A DNA stretch of 64,000 nt, counting the filler, from Circinaria calcarea (Eukaryota), in the NCBI GenBank assembly GCA_051942165.1. It is 7 parts of 7 records of this genome, joined end to end, with 100 filler letters (N's around TTAATTAATTAA, not from the genome) between each part and the next. Parts side by side here need not be neighbours in the genome. Positions count along the whole stretch, not along the records: positions 36,678 to 45,739 come from JAVECS010000992.1; 6 more parts are not named here. The stretch is one strand, 5' to 3'. The notes under the pieces were generated by a model. It searched no databases. It was not told the DNA's origin and worked only from the letters and a program-made list of their open reading frames with translations. Made by a program: the position numbers and the translations under genes. Shown piece by piece: positions 9,929-58,000 of this stretch. The first letter of the stretch is position 1. Each line of letters begins with the position of its first letter.

Positions 9929-10134
9929 GGTAAGCTCACTTGTGCGAACGACACGGCAAGGGACGCATTACCTCCCCCTCTCGTGCAACCTGCTTTTGGC
10001 GTGGGTGAATGTATAAAGGGCAACCTTGACAAGCCTGATTTCTATCTGATCCGTATTTCTCATCCGCCTCAGAAACGTCTTCCAAACGACGTTAGCAAGC
10101 AGACTTCCCCTGAGCTGTTCAATAATCGAACATA

Positions 10135-14021: not shown

Positions 14022-14844
14022 GAAGCGGGCTCCAAAATGATAGTCAGGATAGTAGCAAGTGTTCCTCCTCTCGAATATACCGACGGCTCAATTTAAAACC
14101 AGGTAACTATGTTTACCTTGACGCTTAGTGAGAATAACATAGTAATATTGGAGCGCTCACCCGTATAATGTTGCCCAATAACCCCAGCAAAAGATCGACC
14201 AGAGTGAGAGCCGAGCCCAGTAGTTAGATATGTATCAATGCATGAAGTCTGCTCTGCTGTCTCTTGACAGCGTAACCAAGAATCCAAGAAGGCGACCGGA
14301 CAGAGCAGACAAGCGAAGAGTAATCACAGCAAAGGAGTATTCTCAATCAGACGAGATAAACAATTTTCGGTTCATACACGTAAGAAATGAAAATCCTGCG
14401 CTGTAAAGGAAGGCGCCATTGGTGCAAATCCTGAACGATCAGGTATAAGTCGCTGCTGCTTTGGTTGTGTGGGTTTGGGGCTACAATCTGACATTGGCAG
14501 GAGCGGACATGTGTGAAAAGTATCAGCAAACGTTCACGAGCAGTAAGACAAAGTAACGAAGGATGTTTTGAATTGGTTAGAATGTCGCTATTTAAATACT
14601 CCTTGAGCTATAAATCAGAGCCGTCTGAACCCTGTTGAATATGGGACCAGCCTGTGGCATTTCCGCCATGCAATGTTGAACGCTACAAGTCTATGGAGCT
14701 TTTAGTCAACCGAGTTTTCGCACTCATCATACCTCGTTTGCTAGTGAACGCCGATGTTGAGATCGAGACCTTTGAAATGCAATCATCGAGTCATGCTGTT
14801 GAACATTTCGTCGTTATGCATTCAGACTAAGCCGCTGGACTCGC

Positions 14845-18244: not shown

Positions 18245-18344
18245 NNNNNNNNNNNNNNNNNNNNNNNNNNNNNNNNNNNNNNNNNNNNTTAATTAATTAA
18301 NNNNNNNNNNNNNNNNNNNNNNNNNNNNNNNNNNNNNNNNNNNN
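18245..18344. other. Artificial contig linker
   Basis: N-run + TTAATTAATTAA + N-run. Confidence 0.98.
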
Positions 18345-27412: not shown

Positions 27413-27512
27413 NNNNNNNNNNNNNNNNNNNNNNNNNNNNNNNNNNNNNNNNNNNNTTAATTAATTAANNNNNNNNNNNNNNNNNNNNNNNNNNNNNNNN
27501 NNNNNNNNNNNN
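27413..27512. other. Artificial contig linker
   Basis: N-run + TTAATTAATTAA + N-run. Confidence 0.98.
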
Positions 27513-32792: not shown

Positions 32793-35406
32793 ATGATTAA
32801 ATATGGCATCTGTCTATGCTTCTTGAGCTTACAATTTGCGCCTTCTCGACATATCAGTGCCTTTCGCTCTTCTTTTCATTTACATCCCATCAGACGATTT
32901 TCTTATTACCCAAATGTTACTTGCATATCACCACACGGAGCCAGAACATCAACTATAGATATCATGGCCAAGGCCAAAAGGAAAAGCGTGTCCTCGTTAG
33001 TGCAAGCTGAGCCGTCGCATCTACATTCCTTCGCCGAGGACTTTCCTGCACCCCCTAAACCTCGCGCAAGCAAACGAATACAATCAATCGAACAAACTCC
33101 AATGATTTTTACGAATCCTGAACAAAATGCTGATATCCTTGATGGAGTCAAAGCACTGCGCGCGTCCCCAGATGCAGAAGAGAAGGATGAAAGATTGGAT
33201 TTTGACAAGCTAGGCATAGATCCGAGCAAGCAAATCAAGGAGGAGGACGACGAGGTACCCTCTTTGGTCGCTGGCGAATCTGATTCATCATTGTCGGAGA
33301 TGTCAGATATAGAATCTCCAACCAAGCGCACAGCTACCAAAGCTTCTGGTCCTGCAACGAAGGTGGTCGGTGACCAAGATAATGCTAAGCCGACAGCAAG
33401 GAAGGCAGTCACCCTGAAGACAAAAAATGAGTGCTTTAAGGAGACGCAATTTTTGGATCCAGAGGCAGACGGTGAAGAAGAAGCCGACGAGGAAGAAATC
33501 CAAGCGGCATTATCTCGGCCACCGCCTGTGAACAGCGATTATTTGCCATTGCCGTGGAAGGGACGGATAGGATATGTGAGTTCCAAACGTCGAATTGATT
33601 TCTTCAGCTGAATATCTAGGCCTGCTTATGTACCTATTTACGCTTCTCAAATCCGCCAGTATTCAGTTCACGTACCTGTCGCATTGCCTCCATCCTAGAA
33701 AACCGACATCCTTTAAAGGACCCAGACCAGCCCCCGCATGCCACTAAGAATAGACCAGACCGAGAGCAACCTGCCAGTATCGCTCGAGGTCAGGCCTATG
33801 TTGAAAGTTTAGGCCTTGCCAATGCTAGGGACGTGATTAAGATGCTTAGATGGAATGATAGATACAACATCAAGTTCATGCGGCTTAGCAGCGAGATGTT
33901 TCCATTTGCAAGTCACTTAGAGTATGGCTATAAACTTGCACCCTTTGCTTCTGAAGTCTTGGCAGAGGTTGGGAAAGTGGCTGCTGAATTAGGTCACCGT
34001 CTGACCACTCATCCCGGCCAAGTTAGTTTATGACCAAAGAATTGAGATATCGAGGATGCTGACCTTGAACCTAGTTTACGCAGCTAGGGTCACCTCGAAA
34101 ACCGGTCATTGAAAATGCCATTCGAGATCTCGATTACCATGCAGAACTACTAAGTTTACTGAAATTGCCACCGCAGGAGGACCGTGATGCTGTGATGATC
34201 CTACATCTTGGCGGGGTATTTGGGGATAAAGCAGCAACGTTGGATCGGTTTAGGGAAAACTATGCTAAACTACCCCAAGGCGTCAAGGACCGGTTGGTAC
34301 TGGAGAATGATGATATGAGTTGGTCTGTTCATGATCTACTACCGCTCTGTGAGGAACTAAATATTCCAATGGTACTGGATTTCCACCACCACAACATCAT
34401 CTTTGACCCGGAGCAAATTCGCGAAGGGACAAAGGACATAATGGATTTGTATCCCCGTATCCTGGCGACATGGAAAAGGAAGAACATTAGACCCAAGATG
34501 CACTATTCAGAGCCTACACCAGCTGCTATAACAGGTTCGCAACGAAGAAAACACAGTCCTCGGGTTGCGACATTACCGCCATGCCCCCCCGACATGGACC
34601 TCATGATCGAAGCCAAAGATAAAGAACAAGCAGTCTTTGAGCTGATGAGAATTTTCAAGCTGCCGGGATACGAAACCTTCAACGACATTATCCCTCACGT
34701 CCGGAAAGACGACAACAAACCTGTTGTTCGCCCTAAAAAGAAAACTCCCCGCAAAAGAGCAAAGAAAGTCAAAAAGGACGAGGATGCATTGGATGCCGCT
34801 GAGGAATTGATGGAGGCTGATGAAGAAGAAGAATTCATCCAAGAAGTCATTCCCGAAGACGATATCGGTATGGGCGGGCCTGAAGGCCGTGTCTACTGGC
34901 CTCCTGGGATGGAAGACTGGCTTCGCCCCGTAAAACGGATAATCAAGAAAAAGGACCCGGCCGAAAAGGAAAACGAGAAGCTCACTCCAGCCAAGAAACG
35001 GAAAGCCGCCGAGGAAGCCGCCGCATCGGCAGTCAAGATGGAAACCGAGGTACATGAAGGGAACCTGGAAGAGGGGGATAGAGTAAGGGCCCCACCGGCA
35101 AACAAGAAGGCGAAAACGGCGCCGACGGGTGGAAGGAAGAGAGCGCCGCCTGCGAAGAGGAATGGTAAGAAGAGTGCACCCGAGCCGGTGCTTTCCGAGG
35201 ATGAGGAAGTCTCGGACGCTCTGCCCAACTTGTCGGAGGAGGAGATGGAGGAGGGGAGTCCGAAGCCGGTAAAGTGCAAAGTGGTAAATGGGAAAGGGAA
35301 CGCGAAAGCAAAGGCGGTGCCTGCCCGGCAAAGTGCAAGAGCAAAGAAAATCAGCTATGCTGAGGCCGAGGTGGATGGGGAGGAAGAGGAGGAAAAGGAG
35401 GAGTGA
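32793..35406 (+). CDS. UVE1: UV-damage endonuclease (UVDE)
   Basis: PPPVNSDYLPLPWKGRIGY/ACL, FMRLSSEMFPFASH, RLTTHPGQ/FTQLGSP, RLVLENDD, VLDFHHH, KMHYSE, DLMIEAKDKEQA. In-frame ATGs at 32793 and 32964. Confidence 0.95.
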
Positions 35407-36577: not shown

Positions 36578-36677
36578 NNNNNNNNNNNNNNNNNNNNNNN
36601 NNNNNNNNNNNNNNNNNNNNNTTAATTAATTAANNNNNNNNNNNNNNNNNNNNNNNNNNNNNNNNNNNNNNNNNNNN
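36578..36677. other. Artificial contig linker
   Basis: N-run + TTAATTAATTAA + N-run. Confidence 0.98.
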
Positions 36678-36896
36678 TACGAAAAAATTAAGGATAAAAC
36701 TAGACGGAGAGTAACATGAGTTATATGAAAGCAACATACGGACATACATGTCAACTATGAAGAATTTAAAAAGTCTTGAAAGAGTGGTACCAAAATAAGG
36801 GAGGAAATTAAGAAAGACGTAACAAGCTCAAAAGAACTTAAATCCTTTAAAAAGATAAAGCGAACTATAGCCTGATTTTTTAATCCTAAGGAATAA
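36678..36896 (+). CDS. Plasmid accessory ORF-L, 5'-partial (code 4, 72 aa), Trp-rich domain
   Basis: YEKIKDKTRRRVTWVIWKQHTDIHVNYEEFKKSWKSGTKIREEIKKDV...WFFNPKE*, with four TGA read as Trp. Homologous to ORF-R. Confidence 0.75.
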
Positions 36897-36917
36897 TTCA
36901 AAACAAAAAAAAAAGTT

Positions 36918-36984
36918 TTTGTCTAGAGACTTTATAATATCTAGTACTGTGTTTTTATAAAATAAATTAAATTAAAAAAAAAAA
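36918..36984 (+). promoter_or_regulatory. Conserved leader or putative promoter of the DNA polymerase gene
   Basis: TTTGTCTAGA..ATCTAGTACTGTGT..A-run-ATG; homologous to the RNA polymerase leader. Confidence 0.6.
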
Positions 36985-39858
36985 ATGAAATATAATTATG
37001 AATTTACCAACAAAACAGTTACAAATAAGAACTGTATACTTGCATCACGTAAGAGATTAATCTCTACATGAAGACAAAATATAAGATCTTTATATTTTGA
37101 CTTTAATAACTTTGAGTTAAATCTTTTTACACAAATGATATTGGATAATTTTAATGTGGGTATTACGTACTCATTACTATTAAAGTTGCGATATGACGTA
37201 AATTATTATGGTATGGGGGGAGGTCAAATAGGGTTTAGACTATCAAATGTTAATGACTTAGAGTCAATAAAGAGGTTATATCAAGATTTTAACAACAAGA
37301 TTAGAATGTTTGAAGAAATTTATAACGTAGAAGAGGTAGAGGTAATACAGATATTATACATAGAAATATCAGAGATCTCCAAGTTAAAACTCCAAAATAT
37401 TAATCATATTAAATTAAACAAGGAATTTGTAAAGATTAAAGAAGTTAAGAAACAATATGGTTCTACATTTTTGCCTTTAACAGTAAATACTAATTACTAT
37501 GGTAAAATAATGCGTAACGATACACTTATTACATATATTAACTTGATTAATAGTCAGTTGGAGCTTATACACAGTGGTTTATTAAGTTCCAATGTACTGG
37601 AAAGCATGTATCTATATAACGGGGAGTATATAATTGTTAATAAAAAATTAGAGTTTAATGTATTTAAAAGAGAGGTGTATAGTGCTAAATCTGGTAGATT
37701 ATACTTGGAGGCTCTAGATAGTATATTAAACCAAAATACTTTTAAGAGAAAGATTGGGAATGTGACATTAACTATAGAGAATAGCATAGTAGTACACTTA
37801 GAGATATCTAAGGAATTATCATATGTAAAGCAGCAGTATAAGCCTTATAAAGAGTCATCTAATCCCTTTATAGGTAGTTTAGATTTAGAAACATTTGTTG
37901 ACTCAGACGGATATTCAAAAGTGTATGCATTAGGGTTTGTGACGAGAAAAGAGGAAAATAATCCTGTAATATTTTATTTGAAGGATTCATCTTCTAGCTC
38001 AGAACAATTAATCTTGAATTGTTTTGAACTTTTATTATCTAACAAGTATAATGGTTATATTTTTTATGTTCATAATTTTGGAGGTTTTGACGCTGTATTC
38101 ATATTAAAGGCATTGATTGAAGCTAATAAAAACAAAGGGAGTGAATACTATAAATTATCTACTCTATATAGAGATGATAGATTATTAAAGTTGGATATTA
38201 GGGTTAATAAAGGATCAGGTTTTAATAAAATTAGCATTGTAGATTCTTATAATCTATTAAGTGGTAGTTTGGATAAATTATCACAGTCTTTTGGTTTGGA
38301 AGTTACAAAAGGTAAATTTCCTCATGAATTTGTCAGAAGAGATACTTTAAGTTATGTGGGTAGTACACCATCTATCAGTTATTGAAAGGACTTGAGTAAA
38401 GAAGAGTTTAAAAAGATTTATAGAATAGACTGAGATTTAAAACAAGAATGTATTAACTACTTAGAAAAGGATCTTCTGAGTCTTTTGAAAGTAATGGATA
38501 CTTTTAATAGGTATGTTTTTAACAAATATGATTTACAAATGACTAATAGTTTGACTATATCCAGACTAGCTTTAAATATATTTATTAAGGATTATTTAAA
38601 AAAATCCAAACTACCAATTATAACAAAAAATATGTTTAGTGATATTAAAAAAGCTTATTTTGGAGGTGTAACTGAGGTATATAAACCTTATGGCCGAAAC
38701 TTATATTATTATGATGTTAATTCATTATACCCTTTTGCATCACTAAATAGTATGCCTAACACAAGTTGTATTTACATAGAAGATCATAAAAATAGTCTAA
38801 ATATACAAGACTTATTTGGTTTCTTTTATTGTGAGATAGAAAGTAAAGATAATTATCTAGGTTTATTACCAGTTCATAGCGAAGGAGGTTTAATTATGCC
38901 TAATGGTAAGTGAATTGGATGATATTTTTCAGAAGAGTTAAAGTTCGCAAGTATTAATAATTATGATATAAAAGTCATTAAAGGGTATACTTTTAACAAA
39001 CAAGAAAACGTATTTAATGAGTATGTAAGTCATCTATATGAGATAAAATCCAACAACGAAGGATCAATTAAAGTTATAGCAAAAAGTTTATTAAATAATC
39101 TTTTAGGTCGGTTTGGATTAGACATATATAAACCTGTTACTGAGATAGTAAATAGAGTAAAATTAGAGTTTATCAGTTCAACGTGTAAAGTAGTCTCTTA
39201 TAAGAATATAACCGATAGAGATTTTTTAGTTGTTTATTACCCTGAGGTCTCGAAAGAAATCTGTGAATCACATGGTTTAGACTATTTTAAAGTCTTGGGT
39301 GAAAAATCTAAATACAGCTTAGAGAAAGGTACTGAGTTTAAAGACGTATCTTTAAGTACAGCAGCTGCGGTTACATCTTACGCAAGAATATTTATGGGTA
39401 AAATAAAGCTAGACATTTTAAAGAATGGAGGCTCTATTTATTATACAGATACTGATAGTATAGTCACTAATAAACCTTTACCAGAAAAACTAGTCGGTGA
39501 TAAGCTAGGGCAATTTAAACTTGAATATGAAGTCCAAAGAGCGTATTTTATCTCATCAAAAACATATTGTTTGTTACTTAAAGATTGATCTGTCATAATA
39601 AAAGTTAAAGGGGTAAAGAATGATTCGTTAACTATTAGTGACTTTGTAAATATGTATAAGGGTATTAACGTCGTAGGTGTTAAACAGGATACAATCACTA
39701 GTTATGTAAAAGGATCTGTAGTAATATCAACTAAAAATATCAAATTGAATTATAACTCATATACGAAGAGAGAAAAAGTGTACAAGAACGGTCTGTGAAC
39801 GGGTACTAAACCTTTGATCTACAACAATAGTAATAATTGCTTGGCGGAGGGTAAGTAA
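36985..39858 (+). CDS. Protein-primed family B DNA polymerase (code 4, 957 aa)
   Basis: One frame with 7 TGA read as Trp. ExoI LDLET, ExoII YVHNFGGFD, ExoIII YLEKD, motif A YYDVNSLYP, motif B KSLLNNLLGRFG, motif C YTDTDS, C-terminal KREK..W..TKP. Confidence 0.96.
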
Positions 39859-40015
39859 AAAAAAAAACAAGATTGAATTACTTTAATGCACAAGGGATAG
39901 TATATCAAACTGTAATAATAGTATTTCTATTGCTAAACGTGTATCTAACATAAGTAAACCAAACTACATATCAGTATATGTTATATTATCTTGTTAATTA
40001 GCACTCTAAATAGTC

Positions 40016-40055
40016 GTAAAAAAAGGAAAGTAAAATTTTACTTTCCTTTTTTTAC
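40016..40055. terminator. Perfect 40-bp palindrome between the convergent polymerase genes
   Basis: GTAAAAAAAGGAAAGTAAAA|TTTTACTTTCCTTTTTTTAC. The terminator role is inferred from its position. Confidence 0.55.
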
Positions 40056-40069
40056 TTTCCTTTTATTAA

Positions 40070-43000
40070 CTAGCTCACTATATAGGAACTAGATTTTATA
40101 AGTTCAATGTCTAAACGTGTACTTAATACCAATTCAATATCGGGGAATTTCATTTTGGGAGTATTCTCTATCTTAATAATATTATTAAGATCATCGAAAC
40201 ATTCTTTACCGTAATGAAATTTAATATGTTGCCTAATTTCTCTATCTATTTGTCTTAAATAGTTATCATCTGAGTATATCTTAATATACACAAGCTTTAA
40301 CAATTCCATAAGATTCTCTACATTATTTGCCGTAACAGCAAAACAATCATGTATGGCATATATATTCTTGACGTCTGATGAATAATTATTAAAATAAAAA
40401 TCAGTTAACAAAGCAAGTGAAGCTGCATCCAATGAATGAACTAAGTTAGGCATGAAAGCACGTATCTGTTTGTTAGTGTTATATTTATCTTTATTGGGTA
40501 TCTTTAGTATAAAGCTACTTCTGTCATGGGAAAAAGGTCTTAATTTAGCTTCTTTTGTAGTAAGATAACTTTGTCTAACTACAACTCCTGAGGGTAAACC
40601 TCAAGGTATTACAAGATTTAACCTTGTACATATTTTAGCTATATCTTTTAAATATTTAATTAAGAGCCCTAACTTCATGAAATTATTATCTAAAACTACT
40701 CTTAAACCTGTTGCGATTAAACTGAAATCATTAAATCTTAGTCTAATATTAGGATCATCTATAAATTGATATCATCCGTTCTTAGTATTTAACTGGTCTA
40801 TATCTGAATCACTATCTTTACATTCTACAAAGTGCTCTTGTATATACTTTATCATTTGATGTGTAGTAACATTATATGCTATTGTCATAATAGCTTTCTT
40901 TATAATAGACCTTTGTATACTTAAATTACTTAATCTAGTGTAATTATCTCGATCTTCATCCGATAAATCCTTTAATTTTAGTTTATCCCTAAAATAGTCT
41001 ACTAAATTAACAGACAAAAAGTTGTAAAAATCTTTAGGAACATCCTCTCAAGTTGATTCTATTAAATTTAACTCTTTAGCAAGATTAAAATCACTGCTCA
41101 ACATAGAAAGGTGTTGATATCCATTACAAGTAGCATCTAGTTGTATCGGTAAATATGTTTCAAAATAAATAGTCTCATTTATATTATATGACTGTAATCA
41201 TCTAGTATATTCAAAACAAAAGGCAATAAATAATAATTTACTCTCAGCTTTAGATATTAATATACCATTTTCAAAGTCTATAATATTATTAATGTTGTCA
41301 TCAATTCATTTTATTCTATCAAATCAGGATTTTTTATCTAACTTATTACCATAACAATTTGCTCCAAATGCTTTTAGATAGTTTATTGCTTTTATATCTG
41401 TTTTCATTATTCTTTCAGGTTTGCTATAAATTAATAGAGATTTAGCTAATTCATTTGACTGATAGTTTAAGTATTGACTAATACAATTCATTCTACCCCT
41501 AAAGTCCAACCTGACTGGTAAATAAAATTCATGGATATTAGAGTATACTTTAGCTAATCCTAATATGTTCTCTTGTAGTTCTAATTTAGCCATAAAACTT
41601 TCTACCTGTAATCTTTCTTTTTTTGATAGTTTAGATTTTTCTAATAAATTATTTATGTTGTCTATATAAATAAGAAGATTATACTTACTACCATACTTAC
41701 TAATAAAGTTTAAAACGTCTCTATTTATCTTATAACCTACTGAGTTCATGTTATTAACTAAATCATATGCTACATTGCTGCTTTTTACACTAGAGGCTTC
41801 TTTTAATTCTCAATTATCAATAATTAACTTATCTGTAATTTTTATATCGTTTAATAAATAACCACCTAATCTTTCTACTGGCTTATTGTTAATTATCTCT
41901 CTAAAATAGGGTTTAGGTTTTACTATCATAGGTATTCTTACTGGTAAATGCATTAATTTTTTAGTGTTAACTAAACTAGATAGTACCTCATTAGTAGGTA
42001 CTAAATAACTATGCTTTTCAGTTTTACTCACCACAACTATCTTATTCTGTACTAACTTAGCTTCTTTTAATCATTCTACAACTATACCTCCTATATTACC
42101 CTTCAGAGTTTCATCATTGTAAACACTTACTAAATCAGTATTTTCTGCTTTTCAGTCCGTCAATGTATATCTATCGCCATTGTCCTGATGTTCTCTCTGT
42201 TTTATGTATAAAGAATAGAAATAATCTCTAATTAAATTTTCACTTATATCAATAAAAACGTTAGTAGATATATTATTATTATAAAAGTCATTATAATTAC
42301 TTATAATTCTAGCAAATCTACCCAACATGATAGATATTAACTCTTCATTACTTATTTCTTTTAATAATCTAGACAAATAATAACGACTAATCACATTTTG
42401 ACTTTGTCTAACTGACTTTGTATTTAAATTATAGGATCTTGCTCTAAAGTTATTTATAAACCCCAAGAGTATTCCTTTTGAATCTAATAACAAATTTTTT
42501 ATCTTAAGACCACTAAATAAATCATAATTTATAGATGAATTTTTAGAATTAGGATCTATAGATATATAAGAATAATCCATCAAAAATTTTTCTATACTTA
42601 TTTGTGTCTCTTCATTAATGGGTGCTTTTTTAAAAAACGTTTCTAGACTATTAAAAATAACTGAATCTTCTTTCATAGATTTTTTACTTACCGAAGCTAT
42701 TCTATCCTTAGATCTTTTTGCACTCGTCGAAGAATATCTTACTAAACCTAAGTTCATATGTATATTCTTAAAAGAAAATTTATTTATACCTAATTTTTTA
42801 ATGAAATGACGGCCTTTACCTGAAAGGTTAATCTGACTAGAATGAAAATCATTATGAGTGTATAGAGCATACCTGAAATCACTATCTAAAAGGGATAATG
42901 AGCTAGTTAATGTATTGATTGAACCTCTGTATTTCTTAGGCCCTGCATTAACTTCCATACCATTATTCTTTAAACTCTTTAATAGAAGATCTAAATCTTC

Positions 43001-43939
43001 TACTATAAAGATACATCTGTTTAAAATATTATACTTACTATCCATACCGTGATCAGTAGAGGACTCTTTAATAAATTCCATAGAATAACCCGTAGCTACC
43101 TCTAAGAATGTTCTAAGATTCCTATTAAAAGCTAATTCCATAAGATAACATGTTTTTTCATTATCTGAAACGATTACATTTTGTGCTGACTTCGATAATT
43201 GTCTCATAAAATCATATAAACTTCTAGGAAGCTCACTATGTATTTTTTTTCTATAAGATTCTGTAACTGCAGTTTGAAAACCTTCCACTTCATTTCATAA
43301 GTGAGACAGATAGCCATCCCCCATTAGATCATTTACAATAAATAAATTACCATTAAAAGCATTATAATAACGCTTTTCATTTATTTTAAAATTATTAAAT
43401 AGGAATGCGACTAAAACCATTGTAAATATGGGACTATAGTAGATATTATTATAAACCAAAACATTTTTACCCTCATTCTTAATAACTCTAAATGCTACAA
43501 CATAAATACCTTTATATTTTTTATTAGGAGATTTGAACTTATTAGTCCCCAATTTATAACCATTTTCTAATGCATCTTCTAACTCACCGCTAATTAAGTA
43601 ATTATTTTTTCCAAACGTATGTTTCACTTCTAGTTTCTCCGAATTTAAATCGCAATCTAGATCGTCATCATCCATATAAACAATTTCATCTTCTGCTATT
43701 GGTGAATTATTGTCTACTTTAAGTAAAAGATTGTCTGATAACTTAGGCAAATTATCTTCTCTTCTAGATAAGTTATTATTTAAAGAGTTGGAGACCGCTA
43801 AACCATTAACTGCATTGCTACCAGATTCATTTATATCTAAACCTATTGATTCTATGCTTGGCTTCGTAGAATAAAGTTCGACTTTATTGCCCAAATTGTA
43901 ATTCGAAATTTTTGTTGTTTTATTCATTATTTTAATCAT
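40070..43939 (-). CDS. T7/T3-type single-subunit DNA-dependent RNA polymerase (code 4, ~1289 aa)
   Basis: Six ORF-track fragments share one frame, separated by TGA codons. Motifs: PMIVKPKPY, LDFRGRM, LPIQLDATCNGYQH, RSIIKKAIMTIAYN, WGLPSG..VRQSY, PNLVHSLDA, IHDCF. Confidence 0.96.
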
Positions 43940-44018
43940 TGTTTTTTTTTTATTTAAATACGATTTATATACACAATACTAGATTTATAATGAATATTCA
44001 TTAAAGGTTCTAGACAAA
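43940..44018 (-). promoter_or_regulatory. Conserved leader or putative promoter of the RNA polymerase gene
   Basis: Minus strand reads TTTGTCTAGA..ATCTAGTATTGTGT..A-run-CAATG; homologous to the DNA polymerase leader. Confidence 0.6.
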
Positions 44019-44056
44019 CCTAATTTACGAAAAGTAAAATAGAGTAAACTAATTTT

Positions 44057-45739
44057 CTATACTATACTCCTTTTATGATTTATGTGATGTACATAACCAT
44101 GCTTACGATGTACATACCCATGCCTTTGATGACCATGTCTATGATGCTCAGATCCGTGGTGTCTATGCATTCTAGAAGTTCTAGAACTCTTATTATTGCT
44201 ATAACCTTCTGACTCCGAAACTTTGACGGGTCTGTGATGTCTATTACTTCTTTCAACTAGAAGAGCTCTATCATTATTACTATCACCTACATGACTAGTA
44301 TTAGTTACACCATTTCTAGCTACAAAACCTGTATTTTGTTTCACATGAATGTTAGCTCCTTTACGATTTCTATCCGCTAAATAATTAGATTTATTTCTAT
44401 CTTGTATTGGATTATCAAAAGGACGCTTTTTATCTAAAAGATTCTGGACCTTTTTCTCTAAATTAATTTTTAACTCATCTTTAATAGTTTTTCATATCTT
44501 AGTATCCGGGGATCAAGAATCCTTAAATTCTGCATAAGAACTGTAATTACCTCTTCTATTTTCTCAAATAGTTCAAAGTAGCTTACGTCTACCTCAACTA
44601 TCATATTTAATATAAATACTATTAAGATTAGAATCTAGAGATTTAAATCCCAATTTTATCTTACTAAATAAACCGGGTTTAGCTATTACAACTTCTTTAC
44701 TTGAGTAACCTCTGTTTAGTTCCATAAGAATTCCTTCTCTGATCTTTCGTCTTCGATTACTAAATTCTTCTTCAGTATTTATAGTAGGGATTGTGTTATT
44801 AGACGTATGTTTGTTAGAGACACTATCCGATTTTAAGCCATCTAGAACTTGTCCATTAACTTTAGCCGGACTAACTCTTCTTTCACCTACATTTTGGCTA
44901 TCTGAAGATGATGGGAATAATGGAGACATTGTGTTAGGTGTTGTTAAATTACTAGCTTTTATTCTAGGAGGTATATTAGGTGAATGGTTTGGTGTTGTAT
45001 TTACAACTAAAGGTGTACGATTTGGTGTGGTATATTGTGTGGTAATTGATGGAGATGATGGAAATAGAGGTGACATTGTACTTGGTGTTGTTAAATTACT
45101 TGGTCTAGGTGCTTGACCGAGTGGTCTATTAGCAACTTGTGGTGTCTTTTCAAATAAAGGAAGATTTCCACTTGCTGCGGGAGAAGGTATTATACTAGGT
45201 ATATGTCTAGGCCGTGATGGTAATACCTCCGATACCATATCTTTAGTTGGTGCTTTTATTCCAGCAGATCTATATAACTCTGATACAGGTCTACTATAAG
45301 ATATAGAATCCCTATTAAAACTTGGAGTAGGTGCATACTTTAAAGGTACTGAATAAGTTGTTGTGGCTCTAGATGTAATGGACGCCCTTGATGCATGCGA
45401 TGATCTAGAAACATGAGATGATCTAGATATATTATCATTCGGATTATAAGCAACTGGACGTAAATATGTATTGTTTGTAGATTTGTACCTATCTCCCTCA
45501 TTATCTATGTGAACACTTTTACCTTTATCCTTTCCTTCACATAAAATAGGTTTAAATAAATCTAACTCAGGTATATATGTATAAATTTTTAGAATAAGAG
45601 AAACTAATAGACCAATAAGGAAAAAGTCCTTAAAACTAGATAAATCGTAGCTAAAGTAAAGGACGATATATCAACGAACGGTGAAAGAAAGAACCAAAGT
45701 AATAGATAAGATAGCTAAACTTCGAAGAGTAAATAAATT
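44057..45739 (-). CDS. Plasmid accessory ORF-R, 5'-partial (code 4, >=560 aa): 2 hydrophobic segments, S/P/T-rich linker, Trp-rich domain, His-rich tail
   Basis: Translated by hand: open from the contig end to TAG at 44057 when TGA=Trp. It joins ORF-track pieces 44594-45238 and 44057-44344. Confidence 0.85.
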
Positions 45740-45839
45740 NNNNNNNNNNNNNNNNNNNNNNNNNNNNNNNNNNNNNNNNNNNNTTAATTAATTAANNNNN
45801 NNNNNNNNNNNNNNNNNNNNNNNNNNNNNNNNNNNNNNN
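45740..45839. other. Artificial contig linker
   Basis: N-run + TTAATTAATTAA + N-run. Confidence 0.98.
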
Positions 45840-50099: not shown

Positions 50100-52335
50100 G
50101 CCCGCTATTACCGTCTTGAATCAGAACGGAGTCCTGTTTTGCTTGCAACCATGGCTTTAAAATAGGTTTAGAATCTGACTAGTGTACACCTGCTGTGACA
50201 TGTTTCCATTCGTATTCGAGGTTATTTTATAGAAGTAAATAGGCGACTTGAAATTGCAATTACCTGCAGCCCAGTAATGAAATTATTTTGGGTTTTTCCA
50301 TGTCAGGATCATTACTATGCTGTATACAGTCGCCGTAGTATCGTTGGCCTGGCTTTCGAGTGGCCCGGAGCTTGCCCTGAGAGTCTCATCTGAAGTAGAT
50401 TTCGTCGGTGAACTGCACGCGCTTCCGCTCCCTTGGGTGTTGGTCCCTTGGGTGTTGGTGGCTACGTAGCATTCGTTGGGTGTATTAGAGGCGTCGTTGC
50501 GCTGTTTTCGAGTCCACCTACCTCTTTTGAGGAGTATTATGTTTAGTAGTAGTAAAATGCGCCTATTGTACGCTGAGTTGTTCGTCCAGAGACCTCGTGA
50601 GTAGTTTTGAAGCCTAATTATTTCCATACCAAAACTCGACCTTCTAGTCCTTCTGTCTTTAAACTATGCTCTATTTTCCCGAAGCTGTTCTGGGGAAATG
50701 AGCGATTTCCGGCCCCGAGTTTCACGTTTCTCCAGATCATTGTGGAGACGTCAAGTAGAACCAGAGAGAGACTGTCAGCCTTGATGATACTTGACATTGA
50801 AAACACGAAAGACGTTTTCTTTGAAGTATGGAATACCCATAGCCACGCAAAATTCAATGGCGCCTTGAACTTTGGCTTACTAGGAGTCTTATAGTGGGCT
50901 TAAGAAGGACTATTGACGACAGGAGTAGTCGCTCCATTCATTATACAATTAACAACAGTTCCCCGATATTTCATATATAAGTTGTGTGGTGTAGAGCAGA
51001 GAAATGTCGAGGTGAAATGTGGGAGCTGGTGCGGGGTTTGGTGGGGGTCGGATCGATTCACTGCTATCCGGCATCCGTTATCGGTCGATTTTACTGTGGT
51101 CACAGCCATAACAGATGTTAGCGTGGTTGTCTTGCAATAATCATAGAAGGCCCAAACAACAGTTTGATTTCATAGAGGAAGACGGAATATATACCGGAGG
51201 ATGCCCTCCATATTAAACCTCTTTTTTTTTTTAAACAGAATCTATACAGCCTCTGCCGAGTATACCGGAGTTGGTCGAAACCCGCGCTAACATCTGTAGA
51301 CACAAGGCGTAGGTGTTTTCTTTCCGCGGGGCCAGCTGGTAGTAAATCATGCATAAATTTACCATCATAAACCGCTGCGATGTGAAAGGAAAGCGCGTGT
51401 GCGCGCAAAAGGCTCCAGGCGGGGAATACTGCCGTATGGGCAAGATTGGGTTCAAATCCCATTAGCACTGCCTTTGGGTGGCCTGATGGTTTCCCCCTCC
51501 TGTTTTCCAACACCATTCCAATACTGTGTGATACATCGGGTGGGTTGGAGGCGGCCTTGGCCCTCCTATCGAAAGTATGATCCCGACGAAACCTTTCTCG
51601 GCTTCCCTTGCAGCTTTGGGCGTTCAGAGTGAAGAAGAAGAAGAAGACGCGATGGGTGCTTGGAGCCGATGGAATTGGGGTAATTTGCAGTTTTACCGGT
51701 AGGCACTATTGACCCTTCCCGTTGCGGCTTAGCTCTCGATACCGCATCCCACTTTCCATGTGTACCCAACAGCCACAAACGTCGAATACGGCAAGGGGCT
51801 TATATTGGGGGCTGTTATTGGGGCTGTATTGGAGTGGCATGGAGGCGGCATGGACGAGAGGATTGAAGAAGCCGACTGGCCCTGGATGAGTGAGAAAACG
51901 GTTGTACACAGAGAGAAACACATGGCTGTGCAGCGATAACGAGGAAGAACCACCAGCATCTCGTCGCCCTTGCGCCTCTTCTTCTTCTTCTCCTTCTTAC
52001 CATCGCACACATACAGCCAGCAGCCTCAATGCGCAGCCAACTGTAGTCTCTCTTTTAGTCTGCCTCTCCTTCTCTTCGGTCAGCCGATAACATCCTCAGG
52101 CTGTATGTGTATCTCTCTTCAGTCAGGCAAGGACCTTGCCGTTCACAACTCTAACGTCCATACAGACCAATAATAATCTTAATCATAATAATAGTCGAGC
52201 GGTAACATCAAAGCTCATCCGACAAATCACGCACCCAAGGTCATTCCGGTCAACTCCCCGTCAAGACGCAGCTCCCCGCCGATCCTTTCCCACTCGATTG
52301 GCAATGCTCGAGTTTCCATCCCGAGCCTATCAGCG

Positions 52336-53607
52336 ATGAGTCCGCTACCCGACTCTGGCATCCTGAGCCCGACATGTCTCCATCCAGGGGAGACGACGAG
52401 CAAGTGGGGAAGCAAATCGTCCAAGGTCGAACATGTCGTTGCAGATTCATCATCGCACGAGATCAAACCACGGCCGGGTCGGCGCCGGGGAACAACGCCC
52501 GTACTGGCGCAAATCCTCCTCTCCGCCATCATCCTCCTAACAACGATATGTGCGACGTCGGAAGCAAAGGTTCAATACCACAGGAATTCCGAGTTTGCGC
52601 GGTATGCGAGAAGAGGAGAGATACTGGTTGAGCGACGGCCCGAACCACCACGGGCGGATGGGAGATTATATGCTCGACAGGGTGGGGATCCATTCGACGT
52701 GTCTTCGGCGACGGCTTCCTCTACCAAGGCGAGATCAGCTGCCTCCGTCTCAACCTCTGCCTCGACGTCGCTATTGGCTTCCATTACTCCCCCAGTCAGC
52801 TCCAGTACGGCCGACTCCTCGCAAACTGCCTCCTCCCTACCTTCCACCTCCACTTCCGTTACAGTTACCAACTCAGCCCTTCCACGCCCTTTCGACACCA
52901 GCCTCGGCAGCAACTTCACCGTGTCTAGCTGCCCCTCCTTTTTCAGAACCTTCCTCGCCAATACGACATTCACATCATGCCTCCCGTTTTCTCTCCTGCT
53001 TCAGAACAGTCAATCCTTCTTCCAATCGACTCATTCCCTTGTTCTCATCACCCGAACCCTCGACGCAACATGCAACGTCAACTTCCCCATCTGTTCCTCG
53101 CTCATGTCCTCGCTCGCCACCCAAATGCGCGACAACTCAAACTGCGGAGCGGATTATACGCGCGAGAACCCCATTGTGAGACAAGCCTATGCGGGTTTTC
53201 TCTCCTACGCGTCCTTGTACCAAGCGTCCTGTCTCAAGGACGGCAAGGGAAACTACTGCTTCGCCAATGCCATTACAAATACAACCTCTCCTACCGACAG
53301 TTATGTATACTACCTACCTTTGGGCGTCAATCTTCCCGGTGGATCCAGACCGACATGTTCATCATGTCTTCAGCAGACCATGGCCGTGTTTGCAGAAACG
53401 GCAGGAAATCTATCGCAGCCGATCAGTACGGACTACGTCTCCGCTGCAACGCAGATTACTTCCGGATGCGGGCCTAATTTTGTAAATCAAACTGTCACGC
53501 CGATTCAGGGATCGGAACCATCGACTTCTGGGACCGTGTTTAGGACCGTCAATTATTTGCCGTTCCTTGTCGCGACATCTGTCGGGTTCTTGCTATTTTG
53601 GGGATAA
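52336..53607 (+). CDS. Cys-rich extracellular, probably membrane- or GPI-anchored protein with a Ser/Thr-rich stalk
   Basis: 423-aa ORF: hydrophobic segment, S/T tract, PRPFDTSLGSNFT..CPSFF..CLPFSLLL..CSSCLQQTM domain, hydrophobic C-terminus. Confidence 0.75.
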   Translation: MSPLPDSGILSPTCLHPGETTSKWGSKSSKVEHVVADSSSHEIKPRPGRRRGTTPVLAQILLSAIILLTTICATSEAKVQYHRNSEFARYARRGEILVERRPEPPRADGRLYARQGGDPFDVSSATASSTKARSAASVSTSASTSLLASITPPVSSSTADSSQTASSLPSTSTSVTVTNSALPRPFDTSLGSNFTVSSCPSFFRTFLANTTFTSCLPFSLLLQNSQSFFQSTHSLVLITRTLDATCNVNFPICSSLMSSLATQMRDNSNCGADYTRENPIVRQAYAGFLSYASLYQASCLKDGKGNYCFANAITNTTSPTDSYVYYLPLGVNLPGGSRPTCSSCLQQTMAVFAETAGNLSQPISTDYVSAATQITSGCGPNFVNQTVTPIQGSEPSTSGTVFRTVNYLPFLVATSVGFLLFWG

Positions 53608-54899: not shown

Positions 54900-54999
54900 N
54901 NNNNNNNNNNNNNNNNNNNNNNNNNNNNNNNNNNNNNNNNNNNTTAATTAATTAANNNNNNNNNNNNNNNNNNNNNNNNNNNNNNNNNNNNNNNNNNNN
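54900..54999. other. Artificial contig linker
   Basis: N-run + TTAATTAATTAA + N-run. Confidence 0.98.
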
Positions 55000-55052: not shown

Positions 55053-58000
55053 ATGGACCAACAGAAGTTTGTAGGGCTCCTAGAGAACGTCCTTGCTCGT
55101 AAGTTCAAGTTCCAGGCCAAATCGCTCAGTAGGTAGCTGATCAGATTCAACAGCGGATACCGAGCGCGTCAAGCTTGCAACTGCGGAGCTACGAAAAGAA
55201 TACTACACCTCCCCAGACTCCCTTGGTCTGCTGCTGCAATTGCTCACTTCACATGAATCCCCTCAACTACGGCAGCTAGCTGCAACTCAGGCCCGCTCTT
55301 TGGTCCCAAAACACTGGCAGTCAATACCAGAAACACACAAGCCACAGATCCGAACCCACCTTCTTCAAGCTACCCTCAACGAACAGAATTCCCTGGTCAG
55401 ACATTCGGCAGCGCGTGTCATCGCTACTGTTGCCAAGATCGACGTTGAAGATGGAGAGTGGGCGGATCTTCCCACTCTTATGCAACATGCTGCGAGCAGC
55501 TCCAATGCTCAACACCGGGAGGTCAGCACCTACATCCTGTTCACAATCCTTGAGGGCATGGGCGACGGCTTCATGCACAGATTTCATGAGCTCTTCAGCT
55601 TGTTCGAGAAGACGATTCGTGACCCACAGAGTGCAGAAGTTAGAATAAACACAATGCTAGCATTAAGCAAGATGGCCATGATTATTGATTCTGATAATGA
55701 CGAAGAGTCCTTGCAATCGTTTCAGAACGTTTTCCCGCAGATGGTCAGGGTATTGAAAGAAGCTATCGACTCGGGGGATGAGGGGCGAACACTACAGGGC
55801 TTTGAAGTTTTCCAAACCCTATTGACATGCGATTCTAAACTGCTGAATAAGCATTTTGGGGATCTGGTCCAATTCATGGCTGGTATTGGTGTGGATAAGA
55901 CAGTGGACGACGACGCTCGAACGCAAGCCATTACCTTTTTGATCCAGGCAGTAACATATCGCAAACTGAAGTTCCAATCGTTAAGAATCGGGGAGCAACT
56001 CACGATGGGTATTCTGGAAATCGTGACCGAGTGCGGAAATGATGCGGATGATGAAGATGATGAGCTCACGGTGGCTGGAGCAGCGCTGGGTCTGCTCAGC
56101 GAAATGGCCTCCAATCTGCCGCCCGCTCAGACCGTGGTTCCTTTGTTACGTGTCTTCAACACCCACGCGAATAGCACAGACCCAAATAGGCGGCAAGCTG
56201 CGATTAAGGCACTGGGAACGTGCGTCGAAGGAGCACCCGATTTCATCAGCACCCAATTGAAGGAATTTTTCCCAACAGCTCTACGTTTGTTGGACGATCC
56301 AGTTTTGGGTGTCCGCGAAGCCGCTTTGAGTGGTATCCGGCTGCTAGCTGACCAGCTTGCTGGGGATATGGGTAAGGAGCATCAGAAGCTAATTCCTGCA
56401 CTGGCAAAAAACCTCGATCGTGCTATGCAGGGTTTAAGAGGACCAGATGCAAAGGTGAACCTTGGTATAGTGACAGCCAGCTGCCATGCCATTGAATCGC
56501 TGGTCGAAGGTCTAGAACCTGATGACGTGAGGCCATACCTTCCCGAACTAGTTCCTCACCTGAGCCGCCTTTTCTCATATCCTGACTTGAAGGTTAAGAG
56601 TGCAACCATAGGTGCTATTGGATCCATAGCGTTGTGTGCAAAAGAGGAATTTCTGCCTTATTTCGCAGAAACCATGACCGCGTTAGCCGAATACGTTCAG
56701 ATCAAGGATAGCACAGAGGAGTTGGATCTGCGGTGTATGGCTTGTGACACAATGGGAAATATTGCTTTAGCTGTCGGATCCGAACCATTCCAACCTTATG
56801 TTATTCCTTTAATGAATTCGACCGAGGAAGGGCTTCATCTCGGTCATTCGAGACTCAAGGAAACAAGCTTTCTATTCTGGGGTGATATAGCTAAGGTTTA
56901 TGAAGAAAGCTTCAAGCCCTTTCTCCCGGGAGTAGTGAAAGCTCTTTTTCAGAGCCTTGAACAGGAAGAGGTCAGTACGGAAGTAGAATTAGGAGAGGAG
57001 GCTGCGGACCTAGTCGGCCAAGAGGTGGTGATTGCAGGGAGGAAAGTAAAAGTTGCCGCAGCAGAAGCCGAAAATGGAGACGTCACCGACAGCATGGATG
57101 GAGTTGATGATGAGGAGGAGGAGGACGAAGATGATTGGGACGAAGTGACGGGCGTGACTGCCGTCGCACTGGAGAAAGAATGCGCTTTAGAATCCCTTGG
57201 ACTCGTGATTGCACATACTAAGGGCGAGTATCTTCCATACCTGGAGAAAAGTATTCAAATAATTCTACCTCTCGTGGAGAATGCCTATGAAGGTGTGAGA
57301 CGAGCGGCCATCAGTACTTTGTTTCGTGCGTATGCCTCGTTGTGGAACTTGCAGAATGAAAAGTCGGAGAAATGGCAGCCAGGTCTACCGTTGAAGGTTC
57401 AACCGACAGAAGACATCAGAAAGTTGGGAGAAGTCGTTATGACAGCCACCCTCGCGGTTTGGCAGGGAGAAGATGATAGGTATGTAAAGTCTCATTGAAT
57501 GATAAGTAATCCTTCGTTTCCTTCAACTCATGATGACACATATGTCGTTAATCCCAGCTCACTCAGATGTACTCTGTACAACTGACGAGAAAACGAATCT
57601 GTTCCTGACTATTGTACCTTTCCTCTCTCAAACTGTGCCATAGATTGCATCTTCAAATAGCTGACTATAGTTTGCACCATTAGGCAAACCGTTATAGACA
57701 TTCACAGTAACCTTGCCGAGACACTCAGACTCTGTGGTCCAGCGATAATTTCGGGGAGTGGTGTAATCGAGCAGATTACAAAGCTTGTCATCTCCGTAAT
57801 CACAAAGAAACATCCTTGCCAACAAGATTTTGGAGATGAGGAAGAAGAGGACGACCTACAGGAATCATCAGAATACGACTGGCTCATAATTGACACTGCC
57901 TTTGACGTGATCATGGGCATGTCGTCAGTTTTAGGGGAGCAGTTTGGACAGTTATGGAAGATCTTCGAGAAGAGCATCATGCAGTACGCAAGCAGCAGTG

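Follow-up and report, generated by a model that had tools for sequence, protein, structure and literature searches.

A likely invertron-type linear mitochondrial plasmid from Circinaria calcarea with related accessory genes on both arms

The invertrons of fungal mitochondria, such as kalilo, maranhar, pAL2-1, pClK1, pFP1 and pBgh, are AT-rich linear plasmids with terminal inverted repeats (TIRs) that read TGA as tryptophan and carry genes for a protein-primed family-B DNA polymerase and a T7-like RNA polymerase converging in the center. A third open reading frame has been reported for Pleurotus ostreatus pMLP1 and for other plasmids, and in pMLP1 it is described as a single small basic ORF, with no pair. 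Like the plasmid reported below, pMLP1 (mlp1, 9.9 kb) is an invertron some 10 kb long whose coding capacity exceeds the two polymerases. Table 1 of Smith and Keeling (2013), which ignores hypothetical ORFs, gives 13 fungal plasmids with one or two protein genes (PMC3673629). According to that paper, the polymerase genes of known fungal invertrons themselves extend into the TIRs, and linear mitochondrial DNAs and plasmids undergo subtelomeric gene duplication and homogenization; its plasmid examples involve either the two polymerase N-termini or parts of the DNA polymerase gene (PMC3673629). Two of the loci in our comparison, L036 (766-nt TIR) and L048, follow this known arrangement, with polymerase genes reaching into the TIRs. 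The clade of the present plasmid differs from the known invertrons in that a separate accessory gene, with its own promoter-like box, lies between each TIR and the polymerase gene.

The window, the whole stretch of DNA analyzed, comprises 64 kb of Circinaria calcarea sequence, in which seven contigs of about 9 kb are joined by falling length. Positions 36678 to 45739 are one whole contig of 9062 bp, with a spacer (44 N, TTAATTAATTAA, 44 N) at either end. Its GC content is 28% (0.282), compared to 0.48-0.50 in the neighboring segments. These segments are unrelated nuclear contigs separated by the N spacers, so that the cases named in the preliminary description as counting against a plasmid, nuclear flanks or flanks of ordinary mtDNA ORFs, do not apply. 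Translated with code 4, the contig reads as the 3' piece of an accessory gene (ORF-L, plus strand), the DNA polymerase gene (plus), a palindrome, the RNA polymerase gene (minus) and a second accessory gene (ORF-R, minus). This layout had been proposed before, including the leaders in front of the polymerase genes, and every named element was recovered at its place. The frames of all four genes are open only with TGA as tryptophan, as expected of an invertron-type plasmid under a mitochondrial code: re-translation yielded 27 TGA and no TGG codons and no frameshift. Cytoplasmic linear plasmids of yeasts (pGKL) use the standard code and a non-canonical two-subunit RNA polymerase; an element of this type was rejected on the basis of these frames and of the T7-like RNA polymerase (PF00940).

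The DNA polymerase (36985 to 39858, plus strand) consists of 957 amino acids and belongs to the protein-primed family B, matching PF03175 with residues 354-764 (E 1.1e-97). The Pfam match is preceded by a 353-residue N-terminal region, which is presumed to be the terminal-protein part; a family-B polymerase with such an extension is characteristic of invertrons. Relatives that are 55-59% identical are found on contigs of 8-12 kb, and in 15 relatives the catalytic Asp and other columns are invariant. Of the seven TGA codons in the gene, six fall in tryptophan columns of the alignment of relatives, and four of these positions are tryptophan in 14 of 14 relatives. The RNA polymerase (40070 to 43939, minus strand) is a T7-like single-subunit enzyme of 1289 amino acids, matching PF00940 with residues 849-1244 (E 3.7e-61), and its gene contains ten TGA and no TGG codons. 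The two genes lie on opposite strands and converge, ending at 39858 and 40070.

Both ends of the contig are cut inside accessory genes, and it is therefore missing roughly 1 kb, about 0.4 kb on the right and 0.6-0.9 kb on the left; the missing ends would hold the starts of the accessory genes and the TIRs. The contig shows no terminal inverted repeat, no terminal protein and no physical end, and no 12-mer of its first 200 nt recurs in the reverse complement of the remaining sequence. Integration of linear mitochondrial plasmids is common, and a contig free of TIRs could represent a recently integrated, non-autonomous copy in the mitochondrial or nuclear genome, its ends being assembler breaks. 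Relatives of ORF-R and of the DNA polymerase are also located on contigs of 45-178 kb, and in L039, L041 and L065 family members sit beside broken polymerase pieces. The integrated copies in L035, L057 and L069, however, have fragmented polymerases, unlike the present contig with its four open frames and in-frame TGA codons at tryptophan positions. Furthermore, no mitochondrial gene or tRNA was found on 36678-45739, and a contig that ends inside plasmid genes on both sides fits, by its length, relatives of 10-10.7 kb cut at the repeats. We consequently consider integration improbable. Very probably the contig makes up about nine tenths of a linear plasmid of the invertron type, whose genes are translated in the mitochondria of a fungus and which carries paired accessory genes, as explained below. 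Judged by sequence, the linearity and autonomy of this plasmid rest on its relatives.

Between the convergent polymerase genes lies a perfect 40-bp palindrome (40016 to 40055; A-run, stem, T-run), composed of 20+20 nt that are 100% complementary with no loop. None of 100 spacer shuffles gave a stem longer than 12. Folded as RNA, the palindrome reaches -21.3 and -22.0 kcal/mol (z -6.4 and -5.6), values attained by none of 200 shuffles. A similar hairpin occupies the same position in 19 of 25 loci, with stems of 13-23 that were unmatched by any of 100 shuffles. The sequence has the build of a hairpin-type (intrinsic-like) terminator, namely a stable stem preceded by an A-run and followed by a T-run, and it lies where the two convergent genes meet. 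The palindrome is thus probably a two-way transcription terminator, and the central hairpin would end transcription arriving from both sides.

Each polymerase gene is preceded by a bipartite box, consisting of TCTAGA followed by TCTAGTACTGTG at 36922 to 36951 (plus strand), 33 nt before the DNA polymerase ATG, and of TCTAGA followed by TCTAGTATTGTG at 43972 to 44014 (minus strand), 32 nt before the RNA polymerase ATG. The leaders at 36950-37015 and 43910-43975 show 73% complementarity, rising to 91% in a core of 22 nt, a similarity exceeding that of 200 out of 200 shuffles and bearing out their earlier designation as homologous. The bipartite pattern matches twice in the 64-kb window, compared to 0.00 matches expected. 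Only this bipartite form is specific; the 12-nt box alone also occurs twice inside the coding sequence of the contig. The gene-start module, a TCTAGA hairpin and a box at a fixed distance before the ATG, likewise precedes genes in relatives, and in the plasmid group as a whole the TCTAGA box is located 19-36 nt upstream of the ATG of nearly every gene. Among the bipartite sites in the loci, 34 of 37 have, 19-36 nt further on, an ATG at the head of an open frame of 60 codons or more, compared to 324 of 2000 random positions. From its sequence and placement, the bipartite box is probably the promoter of the plasmid. It would serve the plasmid's own RNA polymerase, and each gene would therefore form a separate transcription unit.

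The accessory gene on the right arm, ORF-R (44057 to 45739, minus strand), is a long-form gene of 560 codons whose start is missing; aligned with its relatives (P0001-P0014), it is about 22-25 N-terminal codons short of P0001. The preliminary description thus correctly placed an accessory gene here, albeit one that lacks its beginning. ORF-R is composed of two N-terminal hydrophobic segments, a linker rich in S, T, P and N, a Trp-rich domain and a basic, His-rich tail. Two 19-residue windows exceed 1.6 on the Kyte-Doolittle scale. The linker carries two TTP(S/N)TMSPLFPSS motifs, encoded by an internal direct repeat (44903 to 45100, minus strand) of 51 nt that is 84% identical and 147 nt apart, and the TTPxTMSPLFPSS motif is invariant or almost so across the ORF-R family. 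All six tryptophan codons of ORF-R are TGA, with no TGG. Its 14 full-length relatives (E 1e-10 to 1.5e-136) are found on contigs of 1.6-10.7 kb and 85-111 kb. On the left arm, ORF-L (36678 to 36896, plus strand) is open at the contig end and comprises 72 codons and a stop, the 3' end of a short-form accessory gene. It had been described as a gene; it is a member of the accessory family, represented here by its 3' end, and with its 5' part beyond the contig end only the C-terminal Trp-rich domain region is present. This region is 79% identical to residues 98-168 of the 169-amino-acid protein P0221 and shares 43% identity with the C-terminal end of the short form in L032.

The two accessory genes are related through the Trp-rich C-terminal domain, which in ORF-R comprises residues 339-462 (44354 to 44725, minus strand). 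In a pairwise comparison, ORF-L and ORF-R are 40% identical over 40 amino acids (E 3e-7); ORF-L matches the ORF-R family profile (E 5.4e-9), and against the iterated domain HMM ORF-L and ORF-R score E 6.2e-19 and E 2.7e-24, respectively. Both contain the signature R/K-x-x-x-W-x-x-W ... Y-x-S-Y-x-x-F-K-x-x-W, in which alignment shows W51, Y64 and F67 to be almost invariant. The domain profile retrieves 464 cluster representatives from public data at E <= 1e-3, and 309 at E <= 1e-10. An AF2 model of the domain (pLDDT 77) consists of three strands and four helices. No Pfam family was found for the accessory proteins and no fold match in the PDB or BFVD by Foldseek (best E 0.24 and 0.11, respectively) or in VIA (best Z 4.0). 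In the domain tree, short copies are placed with short and long with long, irrespective of the plasmid that carries them, with middling support over about 100 columns (long-form clade 88/72, short forms 55/76). By these sequence relationships, the domain exists as an old short form, represented by ORF-L, and an old long form, represented by ORF-R. The N-terminal hydrophobic helix pair is present in ORF-R and, for ORF-L, in its close relative P0221, which can be aligned at its N-terminus to residues 32-78 of ORF-R. The L032 short form and ORF-R share 59% identity in their N-terminal parts (E 2e-14). The short-form model adopts a helical hairpin (residues 2-46 and 49-76, pLDDT 83).

As ORF-L is seen only as 72 codons and its likeness to ORF-R is short, one could regard it as a degenerating relic of an earlier and longer TIR copy of ORF-R, the likeness being a leftover of the repeat and the two forming no functional pair. 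The conservation of the short form argues strongly against this. The short form has a C-terminal K-x-T-x-x-W-F-x-N tail that is absent from ORF-R, and it recurs undamaged in many plasmids as well as in 32 database proteins; the 169-residue P0221 provides a close relative, and all four tryptophan positions of ORF-L are kept as TGA (4 of 4). Moreover, in close pairs the dN/dS of accessory genes is 0.37-0.49 (short-form genes 0.37-0.45) and that of polymerases 0.19-0.43, and by this measure the relatives of the plasmid genes are under purifying selection. A remnant is thus very unlikely, and we treat ORF-L as the short-form partner of ORF-R.

DNA from soil and rock contains many related plasmids in which the paired layout recurs. 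The accessory family is present in 17 of 18 contigs of two related DNA-polymerase clades, and the accessory gene is positioned between the plasmid end and the polymerase gene, on the same strand, for both copies in the present contig and for the copies in those 17. Twelve of the related contigs cover both arms, with at least 250 nt on each, and nine of them carry the family on both. These frequencies, together with the sequence likeness of ORF-L and ORF-R, bear out the proposal of an extra paralogous gene on each arm. In L009, L062 and L026, the other three, the family is missing from one or both arms, and L026 has other ORFs in its place; L001, L027 and L061 have a long arm gene without the Trp-rich domain. 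Wherever the domain occurs on both arms, one short form is paired with one long form (6 of 6 such contigs). The short form precedes the DNA polymerase in the present contig and in L014, L020 and L023, and the long form does so in L008 and L018. The mirror symmetry originally suggested accordingly holds for the presence of paralogs on both arms; these are two distinct forms, and the arm of each is not fixed. Similarly, the proposed plasmid type with an accessory module is borne out by the recurrence of the family; it constitutes a clade within the invertrons and no new kind of plasmid, since extra ORFs on linear mitochondrial plasmids are already known.

Misjoins can occur when AT-rich repeats are assembled from short reads, and one host can harbor several plasmids (73 plasmids from 46 strains, PMC9925561). 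A chimera put together by the assembler from two different plasmids, or from a plasmid and mitochondrial DNA, with an artefactual four-gene order is hardly credible, as order and orientation are repeated on independent contigs from other samples (the gene order is the same in L001, L008, L014, L018, L020, L023 and L061), short contigs from a rock metagenome run are at least 99% alike along the polymerase and ORF-R regions, and base composition is even along 36678-45739.

In the relatives, the accessory genes are tied to the terminal repeats. L061 has an exact TIR of 831 nt, and both of its accessory ORFs start at nt 319; in L001, L008, L018, L020, L023 and L027 the accessory ORFs likewise start inside the TIRs and have common N-termini. 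The promoter box and the N-terminal membrane part are therefore kept identical on the two arms, and the C-terminal unique parts diverge. Together with the grouping of the copies by form, this agrees with the old inverted duplication tied to TIRs that had been put forward for the contig. Since the inverted repeat includes the 5' part of both end genes, this part is identical in the two, and subtelomeric homogenization is accordingly displayed by the accessory pair in L061, L018, L020, L023, L008, L027 and L001. It differs from the described plasmid cases in affecting a dedicated paralogous pair whose unique parts are also related, as seen in the relatives, the ends of the present contig being missing. 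The long forms that L008 and L011 carry on the DNA-polymerase arm cluster with those found on the RNA-polymerase arm in L020 and L023 (100/98), whereas the DNA polymerases of these plasmids fall in different clades of the two. In the L020/L023 pair, dS on the arms exceeds that of the polymerase genes by a factor of 2.7-4. These observations suggest that accessory cassettes swap between arms and between plasmid lineages by recombination, which might make use of the TIR at one flank and the conserved box at the opposite flank.

The accessory proteins may reside in the inner membrane and serve plasmid maintenance. In phage phi29, the small membrane-anchored proteins p1 and p16.7 hold replicating DNA at the membrane. 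The resemblance is one of functional analogy only, in that a protein-primed linear replicon encodes small membrane-anchored proteins; no likeness in sequence or fold to p1 or p16.7 was found, and membership is not claimed. We tentatively speculate that the accessory proteins could act as membrane tethers for the protein-capped DNA or its replication complex. A bolder proposal, which we consider rather unlikely, is that the short and long end genes constitute an obligatory maintenance module, in which two membrane-anchored proteins, one encoded at each end and both expressed from the plasmid's own promoter, would keep the protein-capped termini, or else the replication complex, attached to the inner mitochondrial membrane. 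Such a module would be a mobile cassette, exchanged between arms and between plasmid lineages through recombination between the TIR and the conserved promoter box. If this proposal is true, the module would be a eukaryotic-organelle counterpart of the membrane anchoring of phi29.

Within the 64-kb window, the plasmid finding is confined to exactly one contig, 36678-45739 (9062 bp), which has a GC content of 0.282 compared to 0.48-0.50 in the other six. The window comprises seven unrelated contigs of 9073 to 9001 bp, sorted by falling length and placed end to end with spacers of 44 N + TTAATTAATTAA + 44 N, and any feature across 9074-9173, 18245-18344, 27413-27512, 36578-36677, 45740-45839 or 54900-54999 is regarded as an artefact. 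The neighbouring contigs encode ordinary nuclear-type eukaryotic proteins (importin-beta/IPO5-like, cobalamin-independent methionine synthase MetE, the UV endonuclease UvdE and DUF7729; genes at 10986-16836, 34075-35406, 52195-53607 and 55141-57498) and are therefore not flanks of the plasmid element; they mark the host assembly as a eukaryote, probably a fungus, of about 48-50% GC. Nuclear flanks, which the preliminary description had named as part of a case that would speak against a plasmid, thus do not arise, as the adjoining nuclear-type DNA belongs to separate contigs across N spacers. No tRNA genes are present on the plasmid contig. Six sequencing runs from rock, biocrust and soil metagenomes share a small part of its sequence words (0.05-0.13), with no RNA run among those listed. 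Four of these runs yielded short contigs only; in one of the rock metagenome runs (X1), some of them are at least 99% alike to the plasmid contig. A few cross its ends.

Re-translation with table 4 yielded the four genes in the order and on the strands initially proposed. ORF-L (36678-36896, plus strand), the accessory gene outside the DNA polymerase, comprises 72 codons and is open at the left contig end. The DNA polymerase (36985-39858, plus strand) consists of 957 amino acids and matches PF03175 at residues 354-764 (E 1.1e-97). It is separated by a 211-nt spacer from the RNA polymerase (40070-43939, minus strand), which consists of 1289 amino acids and matches PF00940 (E 3.7e-61). ORF-R (44057-45739, minus strand), the accessory gene outside the RNA polymerase, comprises 560 codons and is open at the right contig end. 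The four frames contain 27 TGA and no TGG codons for tryptophan, and the standard code breaks them up. When the DNA polymerase is aligned with 14 relatives, six of its seven TGA codons fall into Trp columns, four of them with Trp in 14/14. While the layout is as first described, ORF-L represents just the end of a gene, and ORF-R is short of approximately 22-25 N-terminal codons when judged against the relative protein P0001. The contig ends carry no inverted repeat; the left end as an inner boundary of the terminal inverted repeat (TIR) is unsupported, because it has no k-mer in common with the right arm.

The two accessory genes are related, as had been suggested from the sequence, with ORF-L and ORF-R being 40% identical over 40 residues (E 3e-7). 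In a collection of 5.8 billion proteins, ORF-R has 14 relatives (E 1.5e-136 to 1e-10), most of which come from contigs 7-10.7 kb long and some from longer ones (85-111 kb). Cluster look-ups returned no name for these relatives past "hypothetical protein", and Pfam holds no family for ORF-L, ORF-R or any of 10 full-length relatives. A profile of the shared C-terminal domain, built from 30 sequences (alignment A4), was run against 1.84 billion proteins and picked up 464 cluster representatives (50% identity) at E <= 1e-3, of which 309 reach E <= 1e-10.

The DNA around DNA-polymerase relatives, taken from metagenomes (78 loci) and IMG/VR (5 loci; L001, L002 and L007 are a single contig), was searched in code 4 with the family profiles. 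The family-bearing plasmids form two starred clades on the DNA-polymerase tree, the family being present in 9/10 contigs of the first, which includes the window contig, and in 8/8 of the second. The exception in the first clade is L026, in which the RNA-polymerase arm (9441-11525) holds two other ORFs, one of 350 aa and one of 301 aa with some six hydrophobic segments. In twelve of the clade contigs, the sequence beyond each polymerase gene measures 250 nt or more. Nine of these bear the family on both arms (the window contig, L001, L008, L014, L018, L020, L023, L027 and L061), two on a single arm (L009 and L062) and one, L026, on neither. The extra paralogous gene on each arm noted in the preliminary description is hence a recurrent trait. 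On the DNA-polymerase arm of L043 (3-2010), we also observed two tandem accessory genes, each having a box of its own upstream and a Trp-rich domain of the long type.

The C-terminal domain of the accessory proteins occurs in two forms. The short form, to which ORF-L belongs, closes with a K-L-x-L-x-K-x-T-x-x-W-F-x-N tail. The long form, represented by ORF-R, has a K-L-G-F-K ... V-Y-V-K-Y strand region before the domain and further helices to R-P-F after it. Wherever both arms carry the domain, which is the case in six contigs, one form is short and the other long. In the domain tree (34 rows), the long forms constitute one clade with a support of 88/72, and the short forms lie outside it with a weak support of 55/76; the tree is based on approximately 100 columns, and its support is middling. 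The domain copies cluster by form and not by plasmid; on this tree of middling support, the duplication of the accessory gene therefore appears to be older than the plasmids in which it is found. The proposed mirror symmetry holds insofar as both arms carry the family, but the two genes are distinct old forms rather than mirror images. The extent of a complete short form is illustrated by P0221 (169 aa), which matches 71 residues of ORF-L with 79% identity (E 1e-41) and whose N-terminus aligns with residues 32-78 of ORF-R (E 1e-5). Similarly, the short form of L032 (175 aa) is 59% identical to the ORF-R N-terminus at its own N-terminus (E 2e-14) and 43% identical to ORF-L at its C-terminus (E 3e-14). 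From the sizes of these two proteins, a complete ORF-L would therefore have about 170 aa or more, with at least 97 codons absent on the left.

Structurally, ORF-R begins with two hydrophobic windows in its first 60 residues, followed by a 265-residue linker, of which 46% are S, T, P or N. The linker contains two copies of the family-invariant motif T-T-P-x-T-M-S-P-L-F-P, coded by a direct repeat (D1) with a spacing of 147 nt, and is succeeded by a Trp-rich domain and a tail with 34% K, R or H. In the AF2 model of the ORF-R domain (mean pLDDT 77), three strands precede four helices. The model of a whole short form (pLDDT 83) shows a helical hairpin (2-46 and 49-76), followed by three helices that make up the domain core. 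The ORF-R domain model has no match among solved structures (Foldseek PDB, best E 0.24), among viral predicted structures (BFVD, best E 0.11) or in VIA-align over 48,161 chains (best Z 4.0). A complex prediction for the long-form and short-form domains of one plasmid type (P0080 with P0092) scored 0.00, with no verdict. In close relative pairs, dN/dS is 0.37-0.49 for the accessory genes and 0.19-0.43 for the polymerases; the accessory genes are therefore maintained by selection. The DNA polymerase has a 353-residue region N-terminal to its Pfam match, as expected of a fused terminal protein, and since this presumed terminal-protein region is already in place, the accessory genes are not needed in that role. 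Phage phi29 has membrane proteins, which provide an analogy for membrane anchoring. Judging by architecture and position only, our best guess, held with low confidence, is that the accessory proteins may anchor the plasmid, or else its replication complex, to the membrane.

Terminal repeats are preserved in relatives of the plasmid. L061 (12,214 bp) has an exact 831-nt inverted repeat at its ends, and both of its accessory ORFs begin at nt 319, inside the repeat, sharing approximately 170 N-terminal residues, including the hydrophobic segments, before they diverge. The same pattern of a common N-terminus and later divergence recurs in L001, L008, L018, L020, L023 and L027, contigs that stop inside their own repeats, with an end complementarity of 123-139 nt. 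The suggested link between the arm genes and the TIRs thus applies to these seven relatives, the window contig itself being devoid of an end repeat. Subtelomeric homogenisation in linear mitochondrial DNAs and plasmids has been described by Smith and Keeling 2013 (PMC3673629), where polymerase N-termini are the homogenised parts; in the relatives studied here, it is a dedicated pair of accessory genes. The shared N-termini of the relatives are a case of such homogenisation, which is seen in the relatives and not in the window contig because both of its gene starts lie beyond the contig. L036 and L048, from sister lineages that lack the family, have the leaders of the polymerase genes within the repeat, as in kalilo-type plasmids. 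By comparison with relatives, we infer that the right end lacks about 0.4 kb and the left end 0.6-0.9 kb, which would give a whole molecule of approximately 10-10.5 kb, near the size of the contigs encoding P0002 (9,967 bp) and P0001 (10,657 bp).

The assignment of the two forms to the arms varies between plasmids. The short form precedes the DNA polymerase in the window contig, L014, L020 and L023; L008 and L018 instead have the long form in that place and the short form before the RNA polymerase. The long forms of L008 and L011, located on the DNA-polymerase arm, cluster with those of L020 and L023 on the RNA-polymerase arm (100/98), and the short forms of L008, L020 and L023 cluster as well (91/91). 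The DNA polymerases of L008 and L011 belong to one starred clade and those of L020 and L023 to the other. Between the closely related L020 and L023, the two accessory genes have diverged at synonymous sites by 0.52 and 0.77, compared to 0.19-0.20 for the polymerase genes (2.7-4 times). These patterns suggest that accessory cassettes have been exchanged between arms and between plasmid lineages. We postulate that each cassette would be delimited by two sequences which both arms have in common, on its outer side by the terminal repeat and on its inner side by the conserved leader.

The leaders before both polymerase starts are indeed homologous: over 66 nt they are 73% complementary, rising to 91% in a core of 22 nt (inverted repeats I1 and I17), and their similarity exceeds that of 200/200 shuffles. 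The leader module is bipartite, consisting of a small palindrome around TCTAGA (consensus GGTTTRTCTAGARCC) and, after 5-35 nt, the box (A)TCTAGTAYTGTG. The pattern TCTAGA-N(5-35)-TCTAGTAYTGTG is found at 36922-36951 (plus strand), the box ending 33 nt before the DNA polymerase ATG, and at 43972-44014 (minus strand), the box ending 32 nt before the RNA polymerase ATG, with 0.00 occurrences expected in the window from dinucleotide shuffles. Both polymerase starts are immediately preceded by runs of 10-12 A (36970-36984 and 43940-43956). A slightly looser pattern gave 37 sites in the fetched loci, 34 of them with an ATG opening at least 60 codons within 19-36 nt, compared to 324/2000 random positions. 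The sites stand before polymerase genes, accessory genes and further small ORFs, and in L061 a variant of the box stands before the accessory ORFs inside the repeat. On the DNA-polymerase arm of L027 (847-2506) and L028 (1429-3088), four to five bipartite TCTAGA boxes occur in series; most are followed by a small ORF, suggesting that additional small genes are lined up there. We infer from these sequences that the bipartite module is probably the promoter used by the T7-like polymerase of the plasmid itself, and that the 5' leader would be short and A-rich; by the placement of the box, every plasmid gene would then form its own transcription unit.

The spacer between the polymerases holds the 40-bp palindrome reported initially, a perfect 20+20 nt repeat at 40016-40055 (I18). 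As RNA, it folds with -21.3 kcal/mol on the plus strand and -22.0 on the minus strand (z -6.4 and -5.6), values reached by 0/200 shuffles. Its build is GTAAAAAAA-stem-TTTTTTTAC, so that a hairpin with a U-rich 3' side would result in either direction. In relatives, a similar palindrome lies between the convergent polymerase genes, in most with an A-run and a T-run, and its stem length of 13-23 is reached by 0/100 shuffles in 19 of 25 loci. The simplest reading is that of a candidate two-way terminator. The only Rfam matches, two hits of miRNA models to the palindrome, stay with 32 and 30 bits below the gathering threshold of 70, and we attribute them to chance.

Further variation was observed among the polymerases. 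Many close DNA-polymerase relatives (P0017, P0022, P0031 and others) have 1190-1260 aa, with a C-terminal extension of about 230 aa containing a hydrophobic segment that the 957-aa enzyme of the window lacks. Fusion with ORF-L was rejected as a reading of these longer enzymes because the extra part is C-terminal. Two relatives of about 1250 aa, P0048 and P0051, also contain RNase III domains (PF00636, PF14622), an unusual fusion with a plasmid polymerase. In L037 (60-7189) and L038 (136-7954), RNA and DNA polymerase lie on one strand, a non-invertron order matching that of pCGr, pCC2 and pMR1 (PMC9925561). The contig L003/L070 has two DNA polymerase genes and, upstream of a DNA polymerase, a 712-aa ORF (3797-5932) that weakly resembles (E 1e-5) the N-terminal, hydrophobic region of the accessory proteins.

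The usual account of linear mitochondrial plasmids is that of selfish replicons with two genes, and extra ORFs on them are not new. Two genes are likewise the standard picture of fungal invertrons in Table 1 of PMC3673629 and the introduction of PMC9925561. In searches of the openly accessible full-text literature, we found no description of this accessory family, of its paired short and long forms straddling the repeats, of arm exchange, or of the box and hairpin as shared expression signals; the box sequence itself returned no relevant paper. The family may overlap with a described "ORF3". The contig and its relatives represent a large, widespread group, in which two old sister genes for putatively membrane-anchored proteins lie in the subtelomeres and straddle the terminal repeats. 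They offer an unnamed protein family to characterise and a clear case of apparent cassette exchange at the ends of linear replicons, and annotators gain a means of recognising plasmid-derived ORFs in fungal mitochondrial genomes. Furthermore, they supply a candidate promoter and a candidate terminator for a mitochondrial T7-like RNA polymerase encoded by a plasmid, which could be put to use for orthogonal expression.
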